Positions 8,107 to 25,165 of a DNA stretch of 25,211 bases are shown piece by piece. The first letter of the stretch is position 1, and the number at the start of each line of letters is the position of its first letter. Where the stretch lies: IMG/VR virus record IMGVR_UViG_3300038829_000067, positions 1 to 25,211 of that record. One strand, 5' to 3'. The translations under genes and the position numbers were made by a program. The stretch comes from a virus (Duplodnaviria > Caudoviricetes). The notes under the pieces were generated by a model that made no database searches, was not told the DNA's origin, and saw nothing but the letters and a program-made list of their open reading frames with translations.

Positions 8107-8571
8107 ATGGCCAACCTTACCTTCAACATCGCCCACGGGCAAGTGAAACAGTATTTCATCAATGTCGATACGGGTGCACCGGCCAACTCGCGCATCATCG
8201 TGGTGCCGATTGAAACGACGGGCCTCGAAGCCGACGCGACGATCAGAGACCATAACGATCTCTCCGCCTTGCTGGCTGGCACGTCGAATGAACAAACGAC
8301 GATGGGGCGCAAGACCGTGGCCGCAGCGGATATCACGGTGACGGTGGATGACACGAACGAACGGCTTGATATCGATATCGCGGATATCATCTGGACTGCC
8401 GCCACCGGGAATGCGATCAGCGCCCTGGTATTCTGTTATGACCCTGACAATACGGTGGGGACGGATGCGGACCTGATTCCGCTGCTGAAGGCAGACTTTG
8501 TCGTGACCCCTGATGGAAGTGATATTCAGGCGACGATCAACGCCGCTGGACTCTTTCGGGCGAGCAACTAA
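8107..8571 (+). CDS. Putative virion structural/adaptor protein (154 aa, beta-rich)
   Basis: CAGGAG SD; DDTNERLDIDIADIIWT...LIPLL..DFVVTPDGSDI pattern of a widespread phage structural family. Confidence 0.65.
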   Translation: MANLTFNIAHGQVKQYFINVDTGAPANSRIIVVPIETTGLEADATIRDHNDLSALLAGTSNEQTTMGRKTVAAADITVTVDDTNERLDIDIADIIWTAATGNAISALVFCYDPDNTVGTDADLIPLLKADFVVTPDGSDIQATINAAGLFRASN

Positions 8572-8786
8572 TGCCGGTCCCGAACGCGGTGAGAAAAGAG
8601 CTCAACGCCTTGCTCGATGTCGCCTGGGACGACTGGGTGAGTGGGAAGGCCGTGTCCGTATCGGCACGAGTGGATGACGGGCGGGAGGACAAGGTGAACG
8701 CGCTCCTCGCCTTACGAAAGATTCGGCTCAGCACCACGCCTGATGGTGACACCTTGCGCCTTGAACTGGTTCGACCCAAACGCTGA
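8571..8786 (+). CDS. Hypothetical protein (71 aa), possible assembly chaperone
   Basis: Translationally coupled on both sides (TAATG and TGATG overlaps). Confidence 0.65.
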   Translation: MPVPNAVRKELNALLDVAWDDWVSGKAVSVSARVDDGREDKVNALLALRKIRLSTTPDGDTLRLELVRPKR

Positions 8787-10720
8787 TGGCGACTCGCTCA
8801 AAAACTGTGTGGTACGCGGCGCAACTCGTCGCCGATGTGGTGGATAATACCCTCACGTCTTTAGGGACGATCACCGTCTATACCGAGAACAGCAGCCGCG
8901 TGTTCAAGTCCTGCTTGGTCTGGACGCACTTTGAGGACATCGTGACGGCCACAGGTGGCACCATTACGCAACATGCCTGTTCCGTCAGTGTCAATGCGGC
9001 CACGGCGACCACCACGTCGGAGACGGACGATATCGCCAATACGGGTGAGAATATCAGCGGCGTGCTCGGCCCGTGGGATTTCACCTCGCACTTCACCACG
9101 AACTATCCCGCTGCCGATGCCTCCTCCGTCGCCATCAGTGTCCTCTGGGACCAGAGCACCGGCACCACGTTGAACATGCGAAACTGCTCCGCCTTGCTGT
9201 GTATCACCTACGAATATGACGACACGGCGGCGACCCAGTATCAGACCGCAATCATCCCGCTGGAAAGCACCACGGGAGTCCTCGCGACGACGGAGACGGA
9301 AATCGGGACCAACCAGATCCCGCAACTCACGGGCACGGGCGGCTATTTGGAGAATGTGGCAGGCGTGATCGTGCGGCAGCAGTTCTTCGTGATCGAGAGC
9401 AACGATGAATCGAATGCGAGCGTGACGGACTACACGCTGAACGTGCGCATCGACACGGGCACCACGCATACCTATGGCGTGACGGGAAAGGCCCTGGGGT
9501 CAGATTGTTTCAAGCGTCGCATCCATATCGAAGCCCCAGCCACGACGGCGGTCCATGCGTTCAAGATGTGGACGACGGGCCTCGCGTCGTGTGGCCCACA
9601 CGCGGTCTGCATGTACGTGAGCTATCAGTTCACCGTGAGTGGGACGACGAGCTTTTTGAATTCCGTGCAGATTCCGTTTCAGATGAATGCGTCTCCCATG
9701 CAAGGCACGGCAAGCACCACGGCGGATCGCATCTCATTGGATCTGTACGTCGAGGAGCCGACGACGATCACCTTGCGGCAGAGCGCGTACAAACTGACAT
9801 GGGTGTCTGGGAATGGCGCACAAGTCTCGGTCCTCACACGGGCAGGGGCACAAGCGTTTCGTACCTACACTGGCAATGCGTCTGTGGTCTGTGGGGGGGA
9901 GTGCCTGCAACAGCGCGTGGATTCCGGGTCGGCACAGGGCGCAGGCATGACGCTGGCGCGTGGCAAGAACACCATCACCATTGACCTCTATCGGACTGAT
10001 ACCTCGGACTTAGGATGGATCCCCACCGGGATCGTGTACCTCAATTATACGAGTGGCGTCTCCTCGCAGGGGATTGGGGCGCATAAGCAAACACGGGTGC
10101 ACCTGCTCGCGCCATGGGACGGGCTGGTTGTCGTACAACGGACGGTGAGTGCACCGGCCCTCTCCATCCCAGAGGCGAATGTCTGGATTGATGCGATAGG
10201 TAGCATACTATTTCTATGGGTTGCCGGGGGCCCCGATAGTTTCACTGTGCTGGCACAGGTGAACTCTGGCGAAGCCCAGGGCGACGGGTGGCGAACCCTG
10301 GATACCGCACAGCTAGTCAAAGACGCAGAAATTGGGGTCTACTTTTATCATCTAAACGCGTCGGCGCACTTTTTGCGATACACGGGCGATTCTGATGCGA
10401 CGCGCTTGCCTATCGAAGTCGCACGAGAATATCAAATATCTGGAACGGGTATTAAAGCGATTGGGGCGGTGATCTACCTCACCTACCACGCGATCACCTT
10501 CACGGTGGGGGGCGATATCACGGGCAGCGCAGGCGGGACCGTCAACATTGAGGCGCATCGCAGCGATACGGACGAAAAGATCGGGAGTACGTCGCGGGTG
10601 GGGAACGGGGCCTACACGATCCCCTGGTATGACAATACGATTGCCTGCTACACGCAGGCGCGTGAAGATGGCACGCACATCGGACGGTCCAACGATCTCA
10701 CGCCTACGGGGAGTGCCTAA
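8786..10720 (+). CDS. Multi-domain beta-sandwich virion protein (644 aa), putative spike/adhesin
   Basis: Thr/Gly/Ser-rich; four ~140-aa units ending in a hydrophobic strand plus Tyr (aa 142, 280, 421, 567) and a C-terminal ~75-aa Ig/transthyretin-like domain. Confidence 0.7.
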   Translation: MATRSKTVWYAAQLVADVVDNTLTSLGTITVYTENSSRVFKSCLVWTHFEDIVTATGGTITQHACSVSVNAATATTTSETDDIANTGENISGVLGPWDFTSHFTTNYPAADASSVAISVLWDQSTGTTLNMRNCSALLCITYEYDDTAATQYQTAIIPLESTTGVLATTETEIGTNQIPQLTGTGGYLENVAGVIVRQQFFVIESNDESNASVTDYTLNVRIDTGTTHTYGVTGKALGSDCFKRRIHIEAPATTAVHAFKMWTTGLASCGPHAVCMYVSYQFTVSGTTSFLNSVQIPFQMNASPMQGTASTTADRISLDLYVEEPTTITLRQSAYKLTWVSGNGAQVSVLTRAGAQAFRTYTGNASVVCGGECLQQRVDSGSAQGAGMTLARGKNTITIDLYRTDTSDLGWIPTGIVYLNYTSGVSSQGIGAHKQTRVHLLAPWDGLVVVQRTVSAPALSIPEANVWIDAIGSILFLWVAGGPDSFTVLAQVNSGEAQGDGWRTLDTAQLVKDAEIGVYFYHLNASAHFLRYTGDSDATRLPIEVAREYQISGTGIKAIGAVIYLTYHAITFTVGGDITGSAGGTVNIEAHRSDTDEKIGSTSRVGNGAYTIPWYDNTIACYTQAREDGTHIGRSNDLTPTGSA

Positions 10721-11646
10721 TGGCCGATGGCGATATAGCCCTTAGAGATAACGGGACACCAGACGGAGATATTAAGCTCTCCGCGAGCGGGCAGACGATT
10801 GCTGTGGGGCTGATTACTGAGATCTCCACGGTTCAAGCGCTTACCAAAGTCAAGATTCGCACAGTCGGTCTGATTACCGAGACCAGCATCGTTCAGGCGA
10901 TCACCGTTCGCAAGATCCTTGCGGTCGGGCTCATCATCGAAGTCAGTACCGTGCAGGTGGTCGCTTGGGCGCCGAAGCATCGGCTCGTCAATCAAATCCT
11001 TGAAGTCAGCACGGTCCAGCCACTCACAAAACAAAAAATCAAGGCCGTCGCGCAGATCACGGAAATCAGTGTCGTTCAGAGTCTGACCGTGCTCAAGCAG
11101 AAGTCGCTCACGCAGATCACGGAAATTGAACTCATCCAGGCACTGACCGCACGCAAGATTAAAGCCCTTAGCCAAGTCACCGAACTAAGCGTGGTGCAGG
11201 CGCTCACGGCGATCAAGCGCGTGGCCATCGCGCAGATCGTAGAAACGTCGCTTGTGCAGGCCCTCACGGTACGGAAAATTCGAGCGGTCGGGCCCATCAC
11301 GGAAATCAGCGTCGTCCATCAGATTTCGCAAGGTGCGACGATCGTACCCGTCGGGCAAGTGATCGAGACCAGCCTGGTGCAGGCGTTGACGATCAAAAAG
11401 ATCAAGACACTGGGCGTGGTGCTTGAAACCAGTCTGGTCCACGCCCTGAATCGAACGAAGATCAAAACGGTCGATCAAGTCTTAGAACTCAGTCTTGTGC
11501 ATGGGCTGGCCTGGGCACCGAAACATCGGCTGGTCAATCAAATTACGGAAACCGAGGTTGTTCACGCCATAACAAGAGGCGGAGTTGTTGTGGGGGTGGC
11601 GAGTCGGCATCAAGTTAGTATCGCGCTGGGGATCAGGATCGGCTAA
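10720..11646 (+). CDS. Tandem-repeat fibre protein (308 aa), putative head-spike shaft
   Basis: 13 repeats of 20-21 aa; C-terminal IALGIRIG; directly upstream of the spike base gene. Confidence 0.75.
   Translation: MADGDIALRDNGTPDGDIKLSASGQTIAVGLITEISTVQALTKVKIRTVGLITETSIVQAITVRKILAVGLIIEVSTVQVVAWAPKHRLVNQILEVSTVQPLTKQKIKAVAQITEISVVQSLTVLKQKSLTQITEIELIQALTARKIKALSQVTELSVVQALTAIKRVAIAQIVETSLVQALTVRKIRAVGPITEISVVHQISQGATIVPVGQVIETSLVQALTIKKIKTLGVVLETSLVHALNRTKIKTVDQVLELSLVHGLAWAPKHRLVNQITETEVVHAITRGGVVVGVASRHQVSIALGIRIG
10804..11574 (+). repeat. 13 x ~60-bp degenerate coding tandem repeat (consensus ~VGQITEISxVQALTxxKIKx)
   Basis: Units start at aa 29, 49, 69, 90, 110, 130, 150, 170, 190, 211, 231, 251, 272; AWAPKHRLVNQI occurs twice (10963-10998, 11509-11544). 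Confidence 0.9.
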
Positions 11647-11907
11647 ATGTCATCAAAGATGTACGATAAGGACTATACGGCGGCGTCAGGATCAGCCGAA
11701 GCCGTCACGCCAAACGATGGCACCGATCTTCCGCGTGGGTGTCGAGCGCTCTATGTGGGAGGCGCGGGGACGATTGTGGTCATGCTTGATAAAGATAGCG
11801 CGTCGGTCACGTTGGTTGGAGTCGTCGCAGGATCAGTCCTTCCGATTCGGGCCAAGCGGGTCTTTGCAACGGGCACGACGGCCACCAGTCTTGTGGCCTT
11901 GTATTAA
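11647..11907 (+). CDS. Head spike base protein, RcGTA Rcc01079-like
   Basis: 86 aa; AVTPNDGTDLP..CRALYVGGAG..V......VTLVGVVAGSVLPIRAKRVFATGTTATSLVALY matches the family pattern closely. Confidence 0.85.
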   Translation: MSSKMYDKDYTAASGSAEAVTPNDGTDLPRGCRALYVGGAGTIVVMLDKDSASVTLVGVVAGSVLPIRAKRVFATGTTATSLVALY

Positions 11908-17584: not shown

Positions 17585-19665
17585 TGCCTACGGATCTCGA
17601 ACGGCGCTTTGCTGAGTTCAATGACCAGGCTGCGCGAGAAGGAAAGGCGGCAGACGAACGCTCTGTCGAAGAGCGATTCCGTGCTCATCAGGTAGAACAA
17701 GGACGGGGCGGCGTGATTCGCCAAGGCGAGCCACAGCTAAATTTCCCTGTGGGGGCCACGGTGGGCGGCATAGTTGGAGCGGGAACTGGCTTGGCAGTGA
17801 CAGGTGGGAACCCGGTTGGGGCGATGGTAGGCGGGGCGGCAGGTGTAGCATTAGGAGAAGTGGCCCAACAGGGCTATGAACTCCTTAAAGACCCAGGTGC
17901 CGCGCCGCGTACCATTGGGGAATCAGTGGCTCGCATTGCCGAGCAGGAAGCCTATCAGTTGGCGGCCGAAGGCCTTGGACGACTGGGTGGCAAGCTCTTA
18001 GCGGGACGACGACTCGCGCCTGGGATTCCTGAATCTGTGACAGCGAATGAACGTCAAGCCATGACCTACATGACGCAGCGGGGCTATTCGCCAGGCTATC
18101 TCCCCGCAGAAGTAACCGAATCTCGCGGCCTCGATATTCTCCAAAACATTGCTGAGTACTCGCTCTTTGGTGGCGGGGCCATCAAGAAGTTTCGGGAGAA
18201 GCGCGACGCCGAAGTCTTTACCGATGTGGCGCAGCAACTCATTGGCGATCTGGGGCCAAAGATGACGGCGGATGAAGTGGGGCGGTCAGTGACGCAAGCG
18301 GTGGGGCGTGGTCTCGAAATGGAGAAGATCCCGATCGCGATGGAATACAACATGATTGAGCGTATGGCCGCACCAGATTATGTGCATGTGCCCACACGCA
18401 TGAAAGTGACTAGAGAGACGGCTCCCATTGAGAAAACAGCGATTGACAAAGTGACGGTCCAGAAACGCACGGGCAAAGATGCGAACAAGGATGAGCAGTT
18501 GCAAGGCATGAAAGTACGGGTGACAGAGCAAGTCCTCCAAGTCGGTGAACAGTTGCAGCGGCTCAAGGTGATGACGGATTCCAGCGAATTTCAGATCTCT
18601 GGTGCGCGAATCAATCTGACGCCACTCAAAGAAGAGTTATCTGGTGCGCTCAGAGTGGCCAAGGAGGCTGGAGGGCTGGAAGACAAGGCGATGGGCAGCA
18701 CGATGCTGCGGTTTCTGTCAGAGAAACCTGATGTGGTGAGCTACCCCGTGGCGAAACAGATCCGCACGGAATTGCGCACATTACGCGATGGATTGGCGAA
18801 CAATCCTGAAACCAAGAACGCGCCAGCGATTGGATTAGCCGATAAGGCCTATGCGTCGATGACGAATCGCATCGAAGCGGGGCTCCATGAGTATGATCCA
18901 TTCATTGCAGCACGCTGGAAAGATGTGAATTTCAGGGAAGCTGCTCGACAAGGGACGTTTAACAATGATCTGGTGCGGGCTTTGGTCCAGCATGCTGACA
19001 GGGCTGGCAGCGGAAAGCCGGAGGCCATTGTCGATCAGGTCTTTCAGCATAACAATATCAGCACCATTCAGAACGTGAAGAATGCCGTCGATGTGCCGAC
19101 GTGGGACAAGATGCTGTCGTGGCATTGGCGCGATGTCTACGAGAAAACCGAAGGGAATGCCGCCTCAATGCGTGAAGCGTTCTTCGGGGCCAAGAGTGGG
19201 CTAGGTGAGAAGGAAATGGTGCAAGCGTATGGCCCAGAGCGTGTACAGCAGTACAGGCAATTCCTGAACGCCATGGAAACGGCACAAAAGCATGCTGCAG
19301 ATAAGACGGGCACCATTTTTATCCAGTTGAAACAGCCTGGAGCGGTCATGCAACTCTCTGGCGCGGCCCTGGCTGGTCTTGGTCTGATTCAAGACGAAGT
19401 GGATATGACGCAAACGACTGCAGGCCTGGCCATCGTGATGGCTCCCAAGGTGCTCTCGCATCTCATGACGAATCCCGCGACGGCCAAATGGATTATTGAA
19501 GGCATGAAAATTCCCGCTGGCACGAAAGAGGCTGTCGCGTTGGCCTCGCGGATTCTGCCGCTGGCCTATCCACGCCTAGCGTCCACCATTGCTGAACCAG
19601 AACGGCCCGTCTCGAAAACTGGATTGCCGCCAATGCAACTGCAACCGATGGGGAATCAGCCGTGA
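17584..19665 (+). CDS. Putative internal virion/ejection protein (gp16 position)
   Basis: 693 aa helical protein with Gly-rich hydrophobic hairpin (aa ~55-92) and C-terminal hydrophobic segments; TAATG overlap. Confidence 0.7.
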   Translation: MPTDLERRFAEFNDQAAREGKAADERSVEERFRAHQVEQGRGGVIRQGEPQLNFPVGATVGGIVGAGTGLAVTGGNPVGAMVGGAAGVALGEVAQQGYELLKDPGAAPRTIGESVARIAEQEAYQLAAEGLGRLGGKLLAGRRLAPGIPESVTANERQAMTYMTQRGYSPGYLPAEVTESRGLDILQNIAEYSLFGGGAIKKFREKRDAEVFTDVAQQLIGDLGPKMTADEVGRSVTQAVGRGLEMEKIPIAMEYNMIERMAAPDYVHVPTRMKVTRETAPIEKTAIDKVTVQKRTGKDANKDEQLQGMKVRVTEQVLQVGEQLQRLKVMTDSSEFQISGARINLTPLKEELSGALRVAKEAGGLEDKAMGSTMLRFLSEKPDVVSYPVAKQIRTELRTLRDGLANNPETKNAPAIGLADKAYASMTNRIEAGLHEYDPFIAARWKDVNFREAARQGTFNNDLVRALVQHADRAGSGKPEAIVDQVFQHNNISTIQNVKNAVDVPTWDKMLSWHWRDVYEKTEGNAASMREAFFGAKSGLGEKEMVQAYGPERVQQYRQFLNAMETAQKHAADKTGTIFIQLKQPGAVMQLSGAALAGLGLIQDEVDMTQTTAGLAIVMAPKVLSHLMTNPATAKWIIEGMKIPAGTKEAVALASRILPLAYPRLASTIAEPERPVSKTGLPPMQLQPMGNQP

Positions 19666-21125
19666 GTACGTTTGCTCAGAGAGTTCAACTCGGCCCCCTC
19701 TTCACCACTGGCGTCATTCAAGGCGCGGCGAAGCTCTACCATTACGAGGCAGGCACCTCGACGCTCAAGAATATCTGGTCAGACCGTGGCATGACCACGC
19801 CGTTGGCTCAACCATTCCTGTCTGACGCGGATGGGATATGGAACCTGTTTGCTGATGGATTGTACAAAATTGTCCTATCCGCGTCTGACGACACCGTGCT
19901 GTATACGCTTGACAATTGGCAGCTCATCGACCGCACCGACCCGACGTTTGGAGAAGGCACGGTGATTTCGTCTGCTTCGACGATTGCAGTAGGGCCTGAG
20001 ATTTTTGCCCATATCAGCGGCTCGACGAACATCTCGACTATTACTGGCACGATTCCCTTCTTCTGGGCGGTCTTCGATGGCACGCTTACACTGGTCCATT
20101 CATCCAGCTTGCTGTGTCCTGGCAGTGTGAACATGACGGTCAAGACCGGCGATGTGCTGTTCTTCTTAAATGACGGAAGCGGTGTCTGGCGCGTGGGTGG
20201 ACAACTCGCCTCCTCGCTCCTCGTGGGGTCAGAGACGGTCCAGGTGACGGTCACGGATACGCGGACCAATACGGTCGATGTCCCATTTACCGTCACGTCG
20301 CAAACGACCGGCACGCCAGCGGCAGGCATCGGGACGGGGATTCTTGTGCAAGCAGAGAGCGCCGATGAAGCGCCGAGCAATTTCGGACAGATCGAGTTCG
20401 TGGCGTCGGATGTCGGCAGCGGGACCGAGGATACCTACTTCCAAGTCTGGCTACGGGTGGCTGGGGCAGCCTTGTCCGCTGCCTATCGTTTCGTGGCCAC
20501 AACCGCCTTCAACGCCATCTTCACCCATGCCAATACCGCTGACAGAACGTATACCTTACCAAACGAGTCCACAACATTGGTCGGGACAACTGACACCGCG
20601 ACGCTCACCAATAAAACATTGCAAGCATCGGCGGGTGCCTCACTGGTATGGATTGAGACGCTCGATATGTCGTCGGATAACATCTTTAACAGTCTGGGCT
20701 CCGCCTACGATGAGCATATCTTTCAGCTCATCTCGGTGACACCGGGCACGAACGCGCAAGACCTCCAAGTGACCTTTTCGACGGATAACGGATCGTCCTT
20801 TCTCGCCACGGGCTACTCGCATCATTATGCTGGCGCGGTGGCGGACACGAATGGCGATACGGATATTCCGATCATCGTGGGCATTGCCAGCGACACCATG
20901 ATTGGAGGCGTCTACGGACACGTCCATCTGTACGAACCGCATTCGGCACGGAACAAAAAGATCAACTGGGATGTGGTAGGCCCGTCAGGAGTCAACCTCG
21001 CCTTTCGCGTGGCTGGGGCCGGGATCAATACGGCAAACGGCACGGCGGTGGACGCGATTAAATTTGCGTATGCCTCAGGGACGATTGTGGGCACGATTCG
21101 CCATTACGGGGTGAAAAATGCGTAG
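19662..21125 (+). CDS. Tail fibre/spike protein 1
   Basis: N-terminal virion-attachment domain KLYHYEAGTSTLKNIWSD..PLAQPFLSDADG; TADRTYTLPN..TLVGT..TATLTNKTL shaft; C-terminal AVDAIKFAYASGTIVGTIRHYG knob. Confidence 0.85.
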   Translation: MSTFAQRVQLGPLFTTGVIQGAAKLYHYEAGTSTLKNIWSDRGMTTPLAQPFLSDADGIWNLFADGLYKIVLSASDDTVLYTLDNWQLIDRTDPTFGEGTVISSASTIAVGPEIFAHISGSTNISTITGTIPFFWAVFDGTLTLVHSSSLLCPGSVNMTVKTGDVLFFLNDGSGVWRVGGQLASSLLVGSETVQVTVTDTRTNTVDVPFTVTSQTTGTPAAGIGTGILVQAESADEAPSNFGQIEFVASDVGSGTEDTYFQVWLRVAGAALSAAYRFVATTAFNAIFTHANTADRTYTLPNESTTLVGTTDTATLTNKTLQASAGASLVWIETLDMSSDNIFNSLGSAYDEHIFQLISVTPGTNAQDLQVTFSTDNGSSFLATGYSHHYAGAVADTNGDTDIPIIVGIASDTMIGGVYGHVHLYEPHSARNKKINWDVVGPSGVNLAFRVAGAGINTANGTAVDAIKFAYASGTIVGTIRHYGVKNA

Positions 21126-21603
21126 GCCGCTGATGTTCGCTGGGCTCCTCATGGTTCCCCTCCTGTTCGGTTTTGCGTTTGCCTGGACCTCTATTACCTA
21201 TTGGGGCTTCGACGGCGTGACGCGCGCGAAAGAATGGGTGTCACCGGATGGCCGGATGAGTCTGCAAGGACAACTGCCGAACATCGGCACGGCGGTGGAT
21301 TATTGGCCAACCGCGAGCACCCTCAAGCCAACGGAGCATTCCATTGCGGAGATCACGTTGAATCGTTGCCTGTGGAGTGACCCCTGCGTGGAACGGCTGA
21401 GCCTCTCCGCGATGGTCGATCAGACGGACGGCGGGGCCTACCGTGTCAGTATCGAGAAGGGAGGCACGGGACAGCATCGCCCGCTGCTCGTGTGTTTCGA
21501 TAACGCCATTCCAGGCGGTGCGGCGGTGTGTCCGCTCAAGATCGATCCCACAGGCGTCTATATATGGACCAACGGTGGCTATACCCGCATGGGAGGACCG
21601 TAG
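21118..21603 (+). CDS. Predicted exported protein (161 aa) with tail-fibre-like segment
   Basis: Signal peptide MRRPLMFAGLLMVPLLFGFAFA (A-x-A); mature part has 4 Cys and ERLSL...IEKGGTGQHRPL fibre-like motif. Confidence 0.7.
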   Translation: MRRPLMFAGLLMVPLLFGFAFAWTSITYWGFDGVTRAKEWVSPDGRMSLQGQLPNIGTAVDYWPTASTLKPTEHSIAEITLNRCLWSDPCVERLSLSAMVDQTDGGAYRVSIEKGGTGQHRPLLVCFDNAIPGGAAVCPLKIDPTGVYIWTNGGYTRMGGP

Positions 21604-22587
21604 ATGGCCTCGACCGCCCAATTCAAGTTTTTCGGCCCGTTCTTCCAAGCAGGTGTGCTGGCAGGCTCCATCAAGCTATACCACTATGCCGCAGGGACCA
21701 CGACCCTGAAGGACGCCTGGACGGATCGGGCAAAATCGACGACGGCGGCACAGCCTGTGGTCGGTGATGCGAACGGCATCGTCTCGGCCTACTTCGATGG
21801 CCTCTACAAGCTGGTGGTCAAGGATAGTAGCGACGTGACGTTATACACCTGGGATAACGTGGACTTGGAGGAGGTGATTGAGGCCCTGCCCATCGTAGGC
21901 GGGAATCTGACAGGAGGACTCAATACCGCAAAATCCACGGTGGCCTCTGCGACTAACCCGGATATCTTTGCCGTGACCATCGGCAACACGATTGACTACA
22001 CCGGTACGGCGACCTGTACCGGATTCGCGGCCTCCCCACAAGCGGGAGCGCAACGGACGTTGATCTGTTCTGGCGCGGCTGTTTTTACCGCGAGCGCCAA
22101 TATGCTGATCGATGGCGTGGCCAGTGGCAGCAATTTCACGGCGGCGGCAGGGGCGAAGATATTAGTCGTCGCACTCACCACGACCGTATTTCATTTGGCA
22201 TTGCTCTCCGTGCCGATGTATCAAGAGGGCACCTGGACCCCAAGTGTCGGAGGGACGGCAACCTATACCCTCCAAATAGGTTCATATGTGAAAATTGGCA
22301 ATGTCGTCTATGTCCGATGCGTGATGACGGTGAACGTCTTAGGAACTGGCAGCACGACCACCATTTCTGGTCTGCCATTTATCGCCTACGAGGACACAGG
22401 CGTTATTGTGGGCCAAACGGTTGGGTTAGCCGTGTCTCCAGTCTCTGTGCATGGACTGGTCTTGGCTGTGACATCCACGATTAGTATGCGAGGGAGAACA
22501 GCCGCCGCAAATGCGGATTCTGTGCAAGCGGTGTTTGGTAATGGGGCATCAGTCATCATATCTGGCATGTACAGAATTTTGTCTTAG
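21604..22587 (+). CDS. Tail fibre/spike protein 2 (paralogue of fibre 1 N-terminus)
   Basis: KLYHYAAGTTTLKDAWTD..AQPVVGDANG; C-terminal YQEGTWTP...GSYVKIGNVVYV...ISGLPF receptor-binding domain pattern. Confidence 0.85.
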   Translation: MASTAQFKFFGPFFQAGVLAGSIKLYHYAAGTTTLKDAWTDRAKSTTAAQPVVGDANGIVSAYFDGLYKLVVKDSSDVTLYTWDNVDLEEVIEALPIVGGNLTGGLNTAKSTVASATNPDIFAVTIGNTIDYTGTATCTGFAASPQAGAQRTLICSGAAVFTASANMLIDGVASGSNFTAAAGAKILVVALTTTVFHLALLSVPMYQEGTWTPSVGGTATYTLQIGSYVKIGNVVYVRCVMTVNVLGTGSTTTISGLPFIAYEDTGVIVGQTVGLAVSPVSVHGLVLAVTSTISMRGRTAAANADSVQAVFGNGASVIISGMYRILS

Positions 22588-22614
22588 CCACATTTAAGAA
22601 TTATATTCTTCTCT

Positions 22615-22767
22615 ATGCTGACATGGTTACTCCTCACGATCCTGATTCTCACTGGCTGGACCGGCTTGATGGGCTGGAGTGTAGAGCATGTGGAGAATGT
22701 GTGCCTTGAACGAAACAATCTACTCTTGCAGGAAGAACGAGAGGGGCCGTTGCAGGTCTGTCGATAA
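22615..22767 (+). CDS. Small membrane/exported peptide (50 aa), absent from the ORF track
   Basis: MLTWLLLTILILTGWTGLMGWSVEHVENVCLERNNLLLQEEREGPLQVCR; fills the gap between fibre 2 and the next gene; no clear SD. Confidence 0.45.
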   Translation: MLTWLLLTILILTGWTGLMGWSVEHVENVCLERNNLLLQEEREGPLQVCR

Positions 22768-22786
22768 TGCTTTATAAGGAGAATCC

Positions 22787-23350
22787 ATGATGAACCGATT
22801 GCATACATTCTGTACGATGCTCTTCCTAGTGCTCGCCATCAGTGCGAGTCCGGCCATTGCCACAGATATCACGCTCCAAAACACCGATGGTACGAAAACC
22901 ACGCTCAAAGGCACCAGCGGCGCTGCGGCGGTGACGATGGACACCCTCCTCAACATCGAAATCCCCGCGCCGCCCGTGCGCTACATCAGCGTGGGTGGAG
23001 CCAGTGGCGAGGACAAGCACGCCGTCTGTACCGGCCCGTGCCGCATCGAATCCATCTTAGCAGGCAACGTGGCCGCGACCGTGGCCTTTCTCAAGTGTGA
23101 GAACGATACGGCAGCGAATACCGCGCCGGGTACCGATACGCCAGAGTTCAGTATGCCGATTCCAGGAGCCACGACGGGTGATGGCTTCATGGCGGCATTC
23201 CCTGTGGGCAAGTACTTCTCGAATGCCCTCACTTGCTGGATCGTCACTGGCAAGGCCGATAGCGATGTGGCTGAAGTGGGGGCCAACGACGTGCATCTCA
23301 ACTACGACGCCAAGCTCTGCGCCGTGGGGGCGGTGTATCCACAATGCTAG
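22787..23350 (+). CDS. Predicted exported jelly-roll-like virion-type protein (187 aa)
   Basis: TAAGGAG SD; signal peptide ending SASPAIA; AFLK....PGTDTPEFSMPIP...GKYFSNALTCWIVTGKADSD pattern of phage structural proteins; 6 mature Cys. Confidence 0.75.
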   Translation: MMNRLHTFCTMLFLVLAISASPAIATDITLQNTDGTKTTLKGTSGAAAVTMDTLLNIEIPAPPVRYISVGGASGEDKHAVCTGPCRIESILAGNVAATVAFLKCENDTAANTAPGTDTPEFSMPIPGATTGDGFMAAFPVGKYFSNALTCWIVTGKADSDVAEVGANDVHLNYDAKLCAVGAVYPQC

Positions 23351-24132
23351 GAGGTATGGTGAGACGCACATTCCTGGGGTGCCTACTCGCGCTGCTACTG
23401 TGGCCCGCGCAGGGGTGGGGGGCGTTTCCTCAAACCGCTGCGCCAACGGAAACCAGTGTCAACACCGGGTCCACGACCCATAACATCTCGATGCCCGCTA
23501 CCGTCAATAGTGGGGATCTCTTAGTTGCACTCATTGGGATGAGTTCTGCTGGGGATAATAACGTAGACCCTGTGATTGCAACCCCGTCAGGATGGACTCG
23601 GTTGGACTATGACACAGATTTTCAGGGCAGCGCGAGCGATGGAGCGGGTGGAGTATATGTCAAGATCGCGGCAGGGACAGAGGGGGGGGCGACGGTGGAT
23701 TGGGCCACCACGGCGACAACGAGGGGTGTAGGCCAGGTATATCGTGTGACGGCATGGCAAGGCACGTCGAGCGGGTGGTCTATTGCTAAGTTGTCTGGTT
23801 TTGTTACCACGACTCCGGACCCTGCATCCCTCACGCCATTGTTTGGTTCCTCCGATACGTTATGGCTTGTCATGGGGTTCTGGCTCCAAGAACTTGAACT
23901 AATCACAGTCGCGTCAACCAATTATACAAATCCTGTTGATACGATTACGTCCTTCACGGGTTCTAATGACATGACGATTGGTTCAGAGAGACGAGAATTA
24001 GCAGCGGCGTCAGAAGATCCTGGGACGTTCACCTTGGACGCCCTGGCGCACGGAACCGTGTGGACGGTTGGTATACAAGCTGCGGGTGCCGCTGGTGCAA
24101 GAAGAACGAAGTTGCTGTCATTTGGGGGATGA
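23344..24132 (+). CDS. Predicted exported beta-rich adhesin-like protein, Tat-like signal
   Basis: RRTFLGCLLALLLWPAQGWG signal (true start may be 23356 or 23359 after AGGAGG); mature SMPATVNSGDLLVA...TPSGWTRL pattern of phage minor tail domains; C-terminal RRTKLLSFGG. Confidence 0.75.
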   Translation: MLGGMVRRTFLGCLLALLLWPAQGWGAFPQTAAPTETSVNTGSTTHNISMPATVNSGDLLVALIGMSSAGDNNVDPVIATPSGWTRLDYDTDFQGSASDGAGGVYVKIAAGTEGGATVDWATTATTRGVGQVYRVTAWQGTSSGWSIAKLSGFVTTTPDPASLTPLFGSSDTLWLVMGFWLQELELITVASTNYTNPVDTITSFTGSNDMTIGSERRELAAASEDPGTFTLDALAHGTVWTVGIQAAGAAGARRTKLLSFGG

Positions 24133-24923
24133 ACATGGACATAAGCCGAGCGGTGTTTTCCATCTTATTCTTGCTGATCGCTGGATTGTTTAGTGTGCCG
24201 CTGAGTCATGCGGTCTGCGATCCCCATTGCCAGAATGTCAGTGTGATTGGACAGTTGACCGCGTTTGAAGATGTTTCGATCACAACCAGTGGGGGTAATC
24301 ACATCCTGATCGTGGCCATTCGCAATGGGAATGGCACTGGCGCGATTACATCAACGATCACCAACACGTCGCTGACATGGGTGCTTGATATTCACCGAGG
24401 GAGCAATCAGGGCTGGGGGCACGATCTATACTGTGCGATTGTGCCGGGTGCTGGATTACAAAGTTTCAGGGTCAACACCAATAATGGGGCTGTGGGCATT
24501 CGTATCCTTACTGAAGAATACACGTCTGGGGTTACGTGTCCTGCCTCTCACGTTGCGGGAGCGACTGGTACTGGAACGACTATTGATAGCGGTGGCATTA
24601 CCACGTCAGCCGCAGCTCTTATTATTGCTGCAGGAGCCACGGATGGAGATGCGAATGGCGACAACGCTGGATGGAGTGCTGGGTCTGGCTTCAGCATTCG
24701 TAACCCCGCTTGCAACACAGGTGTTGAACCTGACCAAAAGGTATGCGTGGAAGATAAAGGCATTCAAGCGAGTGGCACGTATAATGGTACGTTTGGGTTG
24801 GTATTTAGTGATTCGTGGGATGGTATTGTCGCGTCATATAATGTTGAAGTGGTGGCTCCCCCAGCCTACGCCCGCCCCGCCGCAGGGTACCGGCCACCCG
24901 CAGGCCAGCGCCCCGTACGGTAA
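24129..24923 (+). CDS. Predicted exported beta-rich adhesin-like protein (264 aa)
   Basis: ATGA overlap with previous stop gives start 24129; signal peptide ending VPLSHA; 6 mature Cys; Pro/Arg-rich tail RPAAGYRPPAGQRPVR. Confidence 0.75.
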   Translation: MNMDISRAVFSILFLLIAGLFSVPLSHAVCDPHCQNVSVIGQLTAFEDVSITTSGGNHILIVAIRNGNGTGAITSTITNTSLTWVLDIHRGSNQGWGHDLYCAIVPGAGLQSFRVNTNNGAVGIRILTEEYTSGVTCPASHVAGATGTGTTIDSGGITTSAAALIIAAGATDGDANGDNAGWSAGSGFSIRNPACNTGVEPDQKVCVEDKGIQASGTYNGTFGLVFSDSWDGIVASYNVEVVAPPAYARPAAGYRPPAGQRPVR

Positions 24924-24934
24924 CAGGAGGCCCC

Positions 24935-25165
24935 ATGTCCCTGTCCTTAGCACAGAAGATCGAGCAGCTCAAGGCGCGGTACCAAGGTGAGCACTATTTG
25001 CCGCCGCATGAGGCCTTGGCGATCGTAGACGCCTTACGGCTCATGCTAGAGATTGAGCAGTCGAGAATCACGGCCATTGCGGAGGCACAGATCCGGCTCG
25101 ATGGGCGGATGCACCAGCTCGAGCGCGTGGTCGCGACGTACAATCTTGATGCGAGGCGTGGCTAA
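24935..25165 (+). CDS. Hypothetical protein (76 aa, coiled coil)
   Basis: CAGGAGG SD; helical C-terminus RLDGRMHQLE. Confidence 0.7.
   Translation: MSLSLAQKIEQLKARYQGEHYLPPHEALAIVDALRLMLEIEQSRITAIAEAQIRLDGRMHQLERVVATYNLDARRG

Follow-up and report, generated by a model that had tools for sequence, protein, structure and literature searches.

A three-gene cassette with predicted export signals in the tail-fibre region of a short-tailed phage may encode accessory adhesins that join the virion at lysis

The particles of tailed phages are assumed to be put together entirely in the cytoplasm. Why, then, do several genes in the tail-fibre region of a phage late operon encode proteins that begin with predicted signal peptides? 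The operon is found in the virus record IMGVR_UViG_3300038829_000067, a single contig of 25,211 bases; this whole stretch of DNA was analysed and is referred to here as the window. It carries the late genes of a short-tailed phage, including those for the terminase, a P22-like portal, a GP7 capsid protein, a signal-less Bbp16 cement protein, head closure and DNA ejection. The original prediction described five open reading frames (ORFs), starting at 21118, 22615, 22787, 23344 and 24129, as a cluster of exported, probably disulfide-bonded proteins resembling virion components. All five ORFs were found at these positions. The unit that we observe comprises three genes (22790-24923) and not five, and 21118, an orphan for which no link to virions was found, had been over-included. 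We propose, with a probability of roughly 0.55, that the three genes form an exported accessory adhesin or decoration cassette whose products join virions at lysis. The genes are:

22790..23350, + strand: hub gene, 186 amino acids (aa), alternative ATG at 22787; predicted signal (..SPAIA), variable stalk and C-terminal jelly roll
23356..24132, + strand: slot-2 gene, 258 aa, alternative ATG at 23344; signal (..AQGWG, with RRTFL in the n-region), two-domain beta-sandwich and C-terminal tag KLLSFGG
24135..24923, + strand: slot-3 gene, 262 aa, alternative ATG at 24129; signal (..PLSHA), six mature cysteines and an Arg-Pro repeat tail

Signal peptides were called with a rule of our own (an uncharged hydrophobic core, a non-negative n-region and a small-residue site). 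Applied as a control to 870 internal windows from the virion proteins encoded here, the rule fired on 22. In agreement with the signals originally claimed, N-terminal hydrophobicity was 2.43-3.00 in the five ORFs, compared to at most 1.60 in the other 23 of the 28 late genes. By the hydrophobicity rule and by homology, the predicted export signals of the cassette proteins are real. Translation probably begins at 22790 and 23356, each preceded by an AGGAG(G) Shine-Dalgarno site, and at 24129 or 24135. Because of these sites, and because 24129 overlaps the preceding stop, starts downstream of the hydrophobic segments were rejected. Translational coupling had been suggested for most of the cluster; it holds for 21118, 23344 and 24129, which overlap their neighbours, but not for 22615 and 22787, which follow gaps of 27 and 19 bases, respectively. 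In the four larger exported proteins no lipobox was matched and no second membrane segment that would retain them at the cell was found. A sequence resembling a twin-arginine (Tat) motif is present in 23356 (RRTFL) and internally in one related locus, L025 (SRRTLL), while close relatives have TRTVL or PRTLL instead.

The hub protein was modelled as an eight-stranded jelly roll spanning residues 60-176, with a predicted local distance difference test score (pLDDT) of 83-95 over residues 61-180. The predicted structure and its Foldseek matches, which are uncharacterised phage proteins with E down to 5e-11, confirmed the jelly-roll motif that had been read from the sequence. No PHROG or Pfam match was obtained for the hub, and Foldseek returned nothing from the PDB at E 0.001. 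Disulfides are predicted for C78-C82 and C102-C148, in addition to a terminal cysteine pair. C102 and C148 are placed on strands that neighbour each other by topology, and they would be adjacent according to the predicted model.

Protein searches yielded 64 hub relatives and a domain profile 580 (best 120 of 580 listed). The hub set contained 156 distinct proteins, and the domain was present in 155 of them. A signal was called in 141 of these 155, although the leaders diverge. C102 and C148 were both present in 153, the exceptions being one truncated protein and P0040, which lacks both. The C78/C82 pair was complete in 51 relatives and missing in 104, with a single cysteine never observed; on a fast tree calculated with the pair's columns removed, it changed 11 times, and two of these changes are forced by strong branches. 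The mature cysteine count was even in 153 of 155 proteins. With cysteines paired in this way, oxidative folding of the 22790 family is well supported. The Atlas clusters of the family are 97-100% viral, and when 401 genomes of one candidate host phylum were sampled, only 2 contained the domain, in one case on a contig with a P22-like portal. Together with the fold matches of the hub and slot-2 models to phage proteins, this sets the mature domains apart from ordinary host periplasmic proteins.

When viral contigs were scanned with 23344 and 22787 as single sequences, no relative emerged, and alignments were needed. In P0061 the signal and stalk of the hub are retained (96% identity over 30% of the length) while the C-terminal domain is different, which indicates that leader-stalk and domain are shuffled separately. 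A weak match to the hub domain (E 3e-5) was also seen within a 691-aa frame of a cellular genome (L065, G345:C1:14540-14785).

The slot-2 protein has 3,090 relatives at E 0.001, all without genomic context, and among the best 150 of these a signal is absent in 121. Many of the signal-less relatives start with M-AFP, which lines up with the predicted cut AQGWG|AFPQ, and in the signal-bearing relatives the cut is predicted at the same place. As the signal-less relatives start at the predicted cleavage site, the leader is an add-on to a normally cytoplasmic protein. The slot-2 body is predicted to have a phage minor-tail-like beta-sandwich fold: the model (pLDDT 93.6) matched phage proteins with template modelling (TM) scores of 0.55-0.74 and Foldseek E values of 1e-8 to 7e-5, including minor tail proteins of the mycobacteriophages Hawkeye, Shauna1 and Gaia. 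The motif P...GDLL...PSGW, pointed out in the original prediction, is conserved in the family. The slot-2 gene of the window matches phrog_3329, and phrog_553, a minor-tail family, is matched by three neighbouring signal-bearing genes. The disulfides that had been supposed for the cluster hold for the 22790 family but were rejected for 23356, since its only cysteine lies within the signal and the mature protein has none. Neither the hub nor the slot-2 family had a sequence match to any solved structure, and among their PDB structural matches nothing from tail fibres or branching domains stood out.

The slot-3 gene is more isolated. Compared with proteins of 144-459 aa it remained a singleton, and it gave no match to the 23356 profile; its body is weakly like slot-2 bodies in a composition-biased hidden Markov model match (E 1e-8 in 11 sequences, bias 17). 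Its Arg-Pro repeat tail is common to the slot-3 proteins of close relatives, whatever the body. Export combined with a virion-type fold is supported for 22790 and 23356 and more weakly for 24135.

To see the cassette in context, loci were collected with hub-alignment scans. There were 14 loci from viral contigs, 42 from metagenomes and 3 from genomes; of these, two weak genome hits and the duplicates were dropped. Downstream of the hub there are usually one to three further signal-bearing genes. Core genes nearby include P22-like portals (L009 and L058), T7-like adaptors (L004, L012 and L013), tape measures (L007, L051 and L052) and a T4-like baseplate (L053). Judged by these neighbouring genes, the cassette occurs among the virion genes of short-tailed, long-tailed and T4-like phages. 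An even mature cysteine count was found in 79 of 94 complete signal-bearing genes against 82 of 176 others in the loci, in sets that derive from a crude gene caller and with hub relatives included among the signal-bearing genes. Pfam families, such as beta-helix, LamG, fn3 and lyase families, were matched by 12 of the 80 signal-bearing proteins scanned, and a few of the 80 matched minor-tail or virion PHROGs. One hub protein is named from a Nitrospira metagenome-assembled genome (MAG), and one hub locus lies on a contig with a portal gene that was binned into a Vicinamibacterales MAG, whose phylum is the one in which the 401 genomes were sampled. This suggests two-membrane bacteria as hosts, although binned contigs fall short of proof.

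Like the spread across tail types, the end-tags of the exported proteins are conserved features that had not been part of the original prediction. Of the 25 loci that extend 2.5 kb or more downstream, 18 have a hydrophobic-GVG end-tag after the hub, compared to 0 of 383 antisense frames, with a pattern that was fitted to the same slot-2 proteins in which it was counted. The family consensus is LLGVG, carried by slot-2 proteins with unrelated bodies; the KLLSFGG of the window is a degenerate form. The GVG tag is also present on the signal-less relatives P0074, P0116, P0119, P0136 and P0176. In slots 2 and 3 the end tags persist while the bodies swap. For instance, 22942-23349 and 24899-25143 of the window, which cover the hub and the downstream gene, are retained in related contigs of three other runs, whereas the DNA between them is replaced (swap 23360-24860). 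In L013:10369-11085 a tag-like LLLGAG is located at the mature N-terminus and not at the C-terminus.

In L025 a signal-bearing hub is followed by a signal-less tagged body, so any binding between the two would need the compartments to mix. This slot-2 body and its GVG tag share one open frame with a second leader, twin-arginine-like, and with a slot-3 body (L025:10812-13052); the arrangement may reflect a natural fusion, the loss of a stop or an error of assembly.

By way of the fold matches, the hub domain was also recognised in eight cultured phages: S-SRP01 (of Synechococcus), DSL-LC07, KSC and S2B (both of Caulobacter), PBR31, RSK1, Tweety19 and Funsized. All eight homologues lack a signal and both core cysteines. 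The profile-profile probability was 93.7 for S-SRP01, in which the homologue directly precedes the capsid gene. The link is weak for RSK1 and Funsized; in Funsized the homologue sits between minor tail genes. Searches of cultured phages with tblastn gave no match for the four exported proteins or P0077.

From the observed gene order, signal-like leaders, cysteine pairing, two predicted folds, conserved tags and swapped bodies, the following course of events can be envisaged. The genes 22790, 23356 and 24135 would be expressed together late in infection. Their leaders would direct Sec export to the periplasm and then be cleaved, after which the hub and slot-3 proteins could gain disulfides through host Dsb enzymes. 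By analogy with KP32-type branched systems, the end-tags would hold the parts on the hub jelly roll. The complex would then attach to particles when lysis mixes cytoplasm and periplasm; P22 spikes attach to finished heads in vitro. In a broader form of this proposal, which we put forward tentatively and at somewhat less than even odds, the cassette would be a portable second assembly line used with several tail types, in which a disulfide-stapled jelly-roll hub and swapped, tag-bearing adhesins are made in the periplasm and clipped on at lysis, and in which exported and cytoplasmic partners can be mixed through the same tag.

Several observations weigh against the proposal that the cassette proteins join virions. 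No virion anchor was found on the exported proteins of the window, and the phage also has two signal-less fibres, so that the cassette is not its only adhesin. All signal calls come from our own rule. Most hub searches, including the domain profile, were seeded from cysteine-containing patterns, although the unseeded set of 64 relatives showed the same conservation of cysteines and signal. The 14 hub relatives without a signal call retain the cysteines; several of them look like mis-called starts, and P0020 starts at the mature N-terminus. The stretch after the hub signal varies even among close relatives. The contrast between signal-bearing and signal-less hubs is a single split on the tree, with the eight cultured homologues on one side, which speaks for one gain of export and disulfide and not for many. 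In slot 2 the cysteine content is no higher with export (0.73% versus 0.66%). Structural matches in the PDB were only generic jelly rolls for the hub (best Z 7.4, nucleoplasmin) and weak for slot 2 (best Z 6.8). Finally, the signal-bearing form was found in no cultured phage, and none of the cultured homologues has been shown in particles; the PBR31 paper contains no mass spectrometry.

A less likely explanation, and the strongest of the competing ones, is that the cassette encodes former virion adhesins that are exported and stay with the host or the medium, where they would mask receptors, act as decoys against competing phages or serve as adhesins of the lysogen or infected cell. In the available part of the sources, T5 Llp is a periplasmic phage lipoprotein encoded beside the receptor-binding protein (PMC9586334), and Bdellovibrio exports phage-like fibres with signal peptides (PMC10769870). 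One hub locus is a provirus, and the absence of an anchor from the window's exported proteins and the coexistence of signal-less fibres count in favour of this explanation as well. However, the proteins have neither a lipobox nor a further membrane segment by which the cell could retain them, signal-less proteins carry this tag and these domains too, and the block lies inside virion gene modules across tail types. Promoter-like sites in the block are not in excess either (4 compared to 2.8 expected), and the promoter and terminator counts are at chance level.

We consider it quite improbable that the leaders are uncleaved membrane anchors, which would gather the proteins at the inner membrane for assembly on the cytoplasmic side or park them until lysis, with disulfides formed after release. 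Disulfides can form in virions after lysis, and cleavage is predicted by rule only. On the other hand, the n-region of the leaders is basic and their end is of the A-x-A type, signal-less relatives begin at the exact predicted cleavage residue, and by the established topology rule a positive N-terminus would put the body outside the cytoplasm. Least probable of all is a role in a lysis or envelope-degrading module, with secreted glycan-binding and lyase proteins that aid the exit of progeny from capsule or biofilm: the cassette does lie directly before the DUF5675 gene and holin-like genes in close relatives, and some slot-3 bodies are beta-helix or lyase-like, but in other phages it adjoins capsid, portal or baseplate genes, and none of the window's three bodies matched an enzyme family.

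The features that surround the cassette, and those with which it may cooperate, are:

19662..21125, + strand: signal-less tail fibre or spike 1, with the shared N-terminus
21118..21603, + strand: orphan exported protein, 161 aa, four cysteines, between two fibre genes
21604..22587, + strand: signal-less tail fibre or spike 2, with the shared N-terminus
22615..22767, + strand: small ORF, 50 aa, hydrophobic N-terminus, two cysteines
24935..25165, + strand: cassette-closing gene in close relatives, 76 aa, signal-less, 80-96% identical in seven loci; the start of the DUF5675 gene comes after it
8107-11907: signal-less block after the cement gene, encoding proteins of 154, 71, 644, 308 and 86 aa
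L005:10349-10750, L006:10466-10921, L010:10437-10856, L034:969-1370, L039:471-869, L045:2533-2931 and L054:2206-2613: protein between hub and slot 2

The genes 19662 and 21604 are called as fibres on the basis of an N-terminus that they have in common (40% over 160 aa) and that also gives matches to the tail spike of Xanthomonas phage PBR31 (E 2e-5 and 1e-8). Between them, 21118 had been credited with a fibre motif (EKGGTG..R). This protein had no match in Pfam, the PHROGs or cultured phages, and none of the searches turned up a relative; its only lead was a bacterial one in the Atlas (0.83), and it was rejected as a fibre. In the nearest relatives its position holds other DNA. It is probably a separate exported moron, Llp- or Cor-like by position and outside the cassette, and for this protein an action at the host surface or as a decoy is the best reading. 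The small ORF 22615 is kept before the hub in L017 (98%) and in L020 and L021 (82%) and is absent from the other loci.

In the block at 8107-11907, the 308-aa protein is built from repeats of about 23 residues. The 644-aa gene, together with its neighbours, is found directly upstream of the hub gene in L025 and L030. The block is a candidate head-fibre module and a possible partner of the cassette. The signal-less protein between hub and slot 2, of about 135-150 aa and conserved in seven loci, is a candidate cytoplasmic adaptor. A predicted signal and paired cysteines were also seen in the gene directly after the major capsid gene, the usual cement slot, in L007:7889-8353, L009:7950-8777 and L052:6772-7263. 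Proteins in the tail-fibre slot of L038:7638-8801 and L003:16390-16710 have predicted signals and no PHROG or Pfam match; their mature N-terminus resembles what we take to be a fibre anchor.

If the cassette proteins do join virions, phages could use disulfide-stabilised adhesins by way of a periplasmic branch of assembly, and host range would depend on the Sec and Dsb systems of the host. Many genes of uncultured phages annotated as secreted hypothetical proteins would then be host-recognition parts. A testable handle is provided by one 115-residue domain, whose homologues in cultured phages of Caulobacter, Synechococcus and Arthrobacter are signal-less and cysteine-free, together with a five-residue tag.

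In the literature covered, which left out most subscription papers and all supplements, no account was found of tailed phages that export virion proteins. Among known systems, T5 Llp and T1/phi80 Cor are exported phage proteins encoded beside receptor-binding genes and offer the best model for 21118 (PMC9586334, available part). As described there, they are small lipoproteins retained in the envelope, whereas the cassette proteins have no lipobox and carry virion-type folds and tags. The MAT fibres of Bdellovibrio are likewise phage-fibre-like, mosaic, signal-bearing adhesins with a conserved module. They differ, in the part of the source available, in being chromosomal predator surface fibres and not phage late genes, and in having the conserved domain directly after the signal and S74 chaperones (PMC10769870).

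The capsid cements of KHP40 (7dou), GP4 (8h89) and Pam1 (7eel) have the same general fold as the hub model (Z 7.3, 6.0 and 5.9, respectively), and a signal-less hub homologue directly precedes the capsid gene of S-SRP01. However, these scores are in the generic range (nucleoplasmin 7.4), with 7dou (root-mean-square deviation 3.6, 108 residues aligned) tied with non-viral folds, and no solved cement was matched in sequence. A signal, a stalk and cysteine pairs distinguish the hub from the cements, and the window encodes a signal-less Bbp16 cement of its own.

A further parallel is offered by the KP32-type systems, the parts of which assemble in the cytoplasm. In the available part of the source, the branched receptor-binding proteins of KP32, K11 and KP34, which are podophages of Klebsiella, are described with a T4 gp10-like branching domain and a conserved docking peptide (PMC13352976). 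Both systems combine a conserved domain with exchangeable adhesin bodies that bear a short conserved peptide, encoded in the tail gene region. As far as that description goes, the docking peptide is N-terminal, whereas the tags of the cassette are C-terminal and its N-termini are signal peptides. The anchor domain is known for the KP32 type and none was identified for the cassette, which in turn has predicted export signals and disulfides. If docking were shown, the cassette would represent a new assembly route among modular phage adhesin systems.

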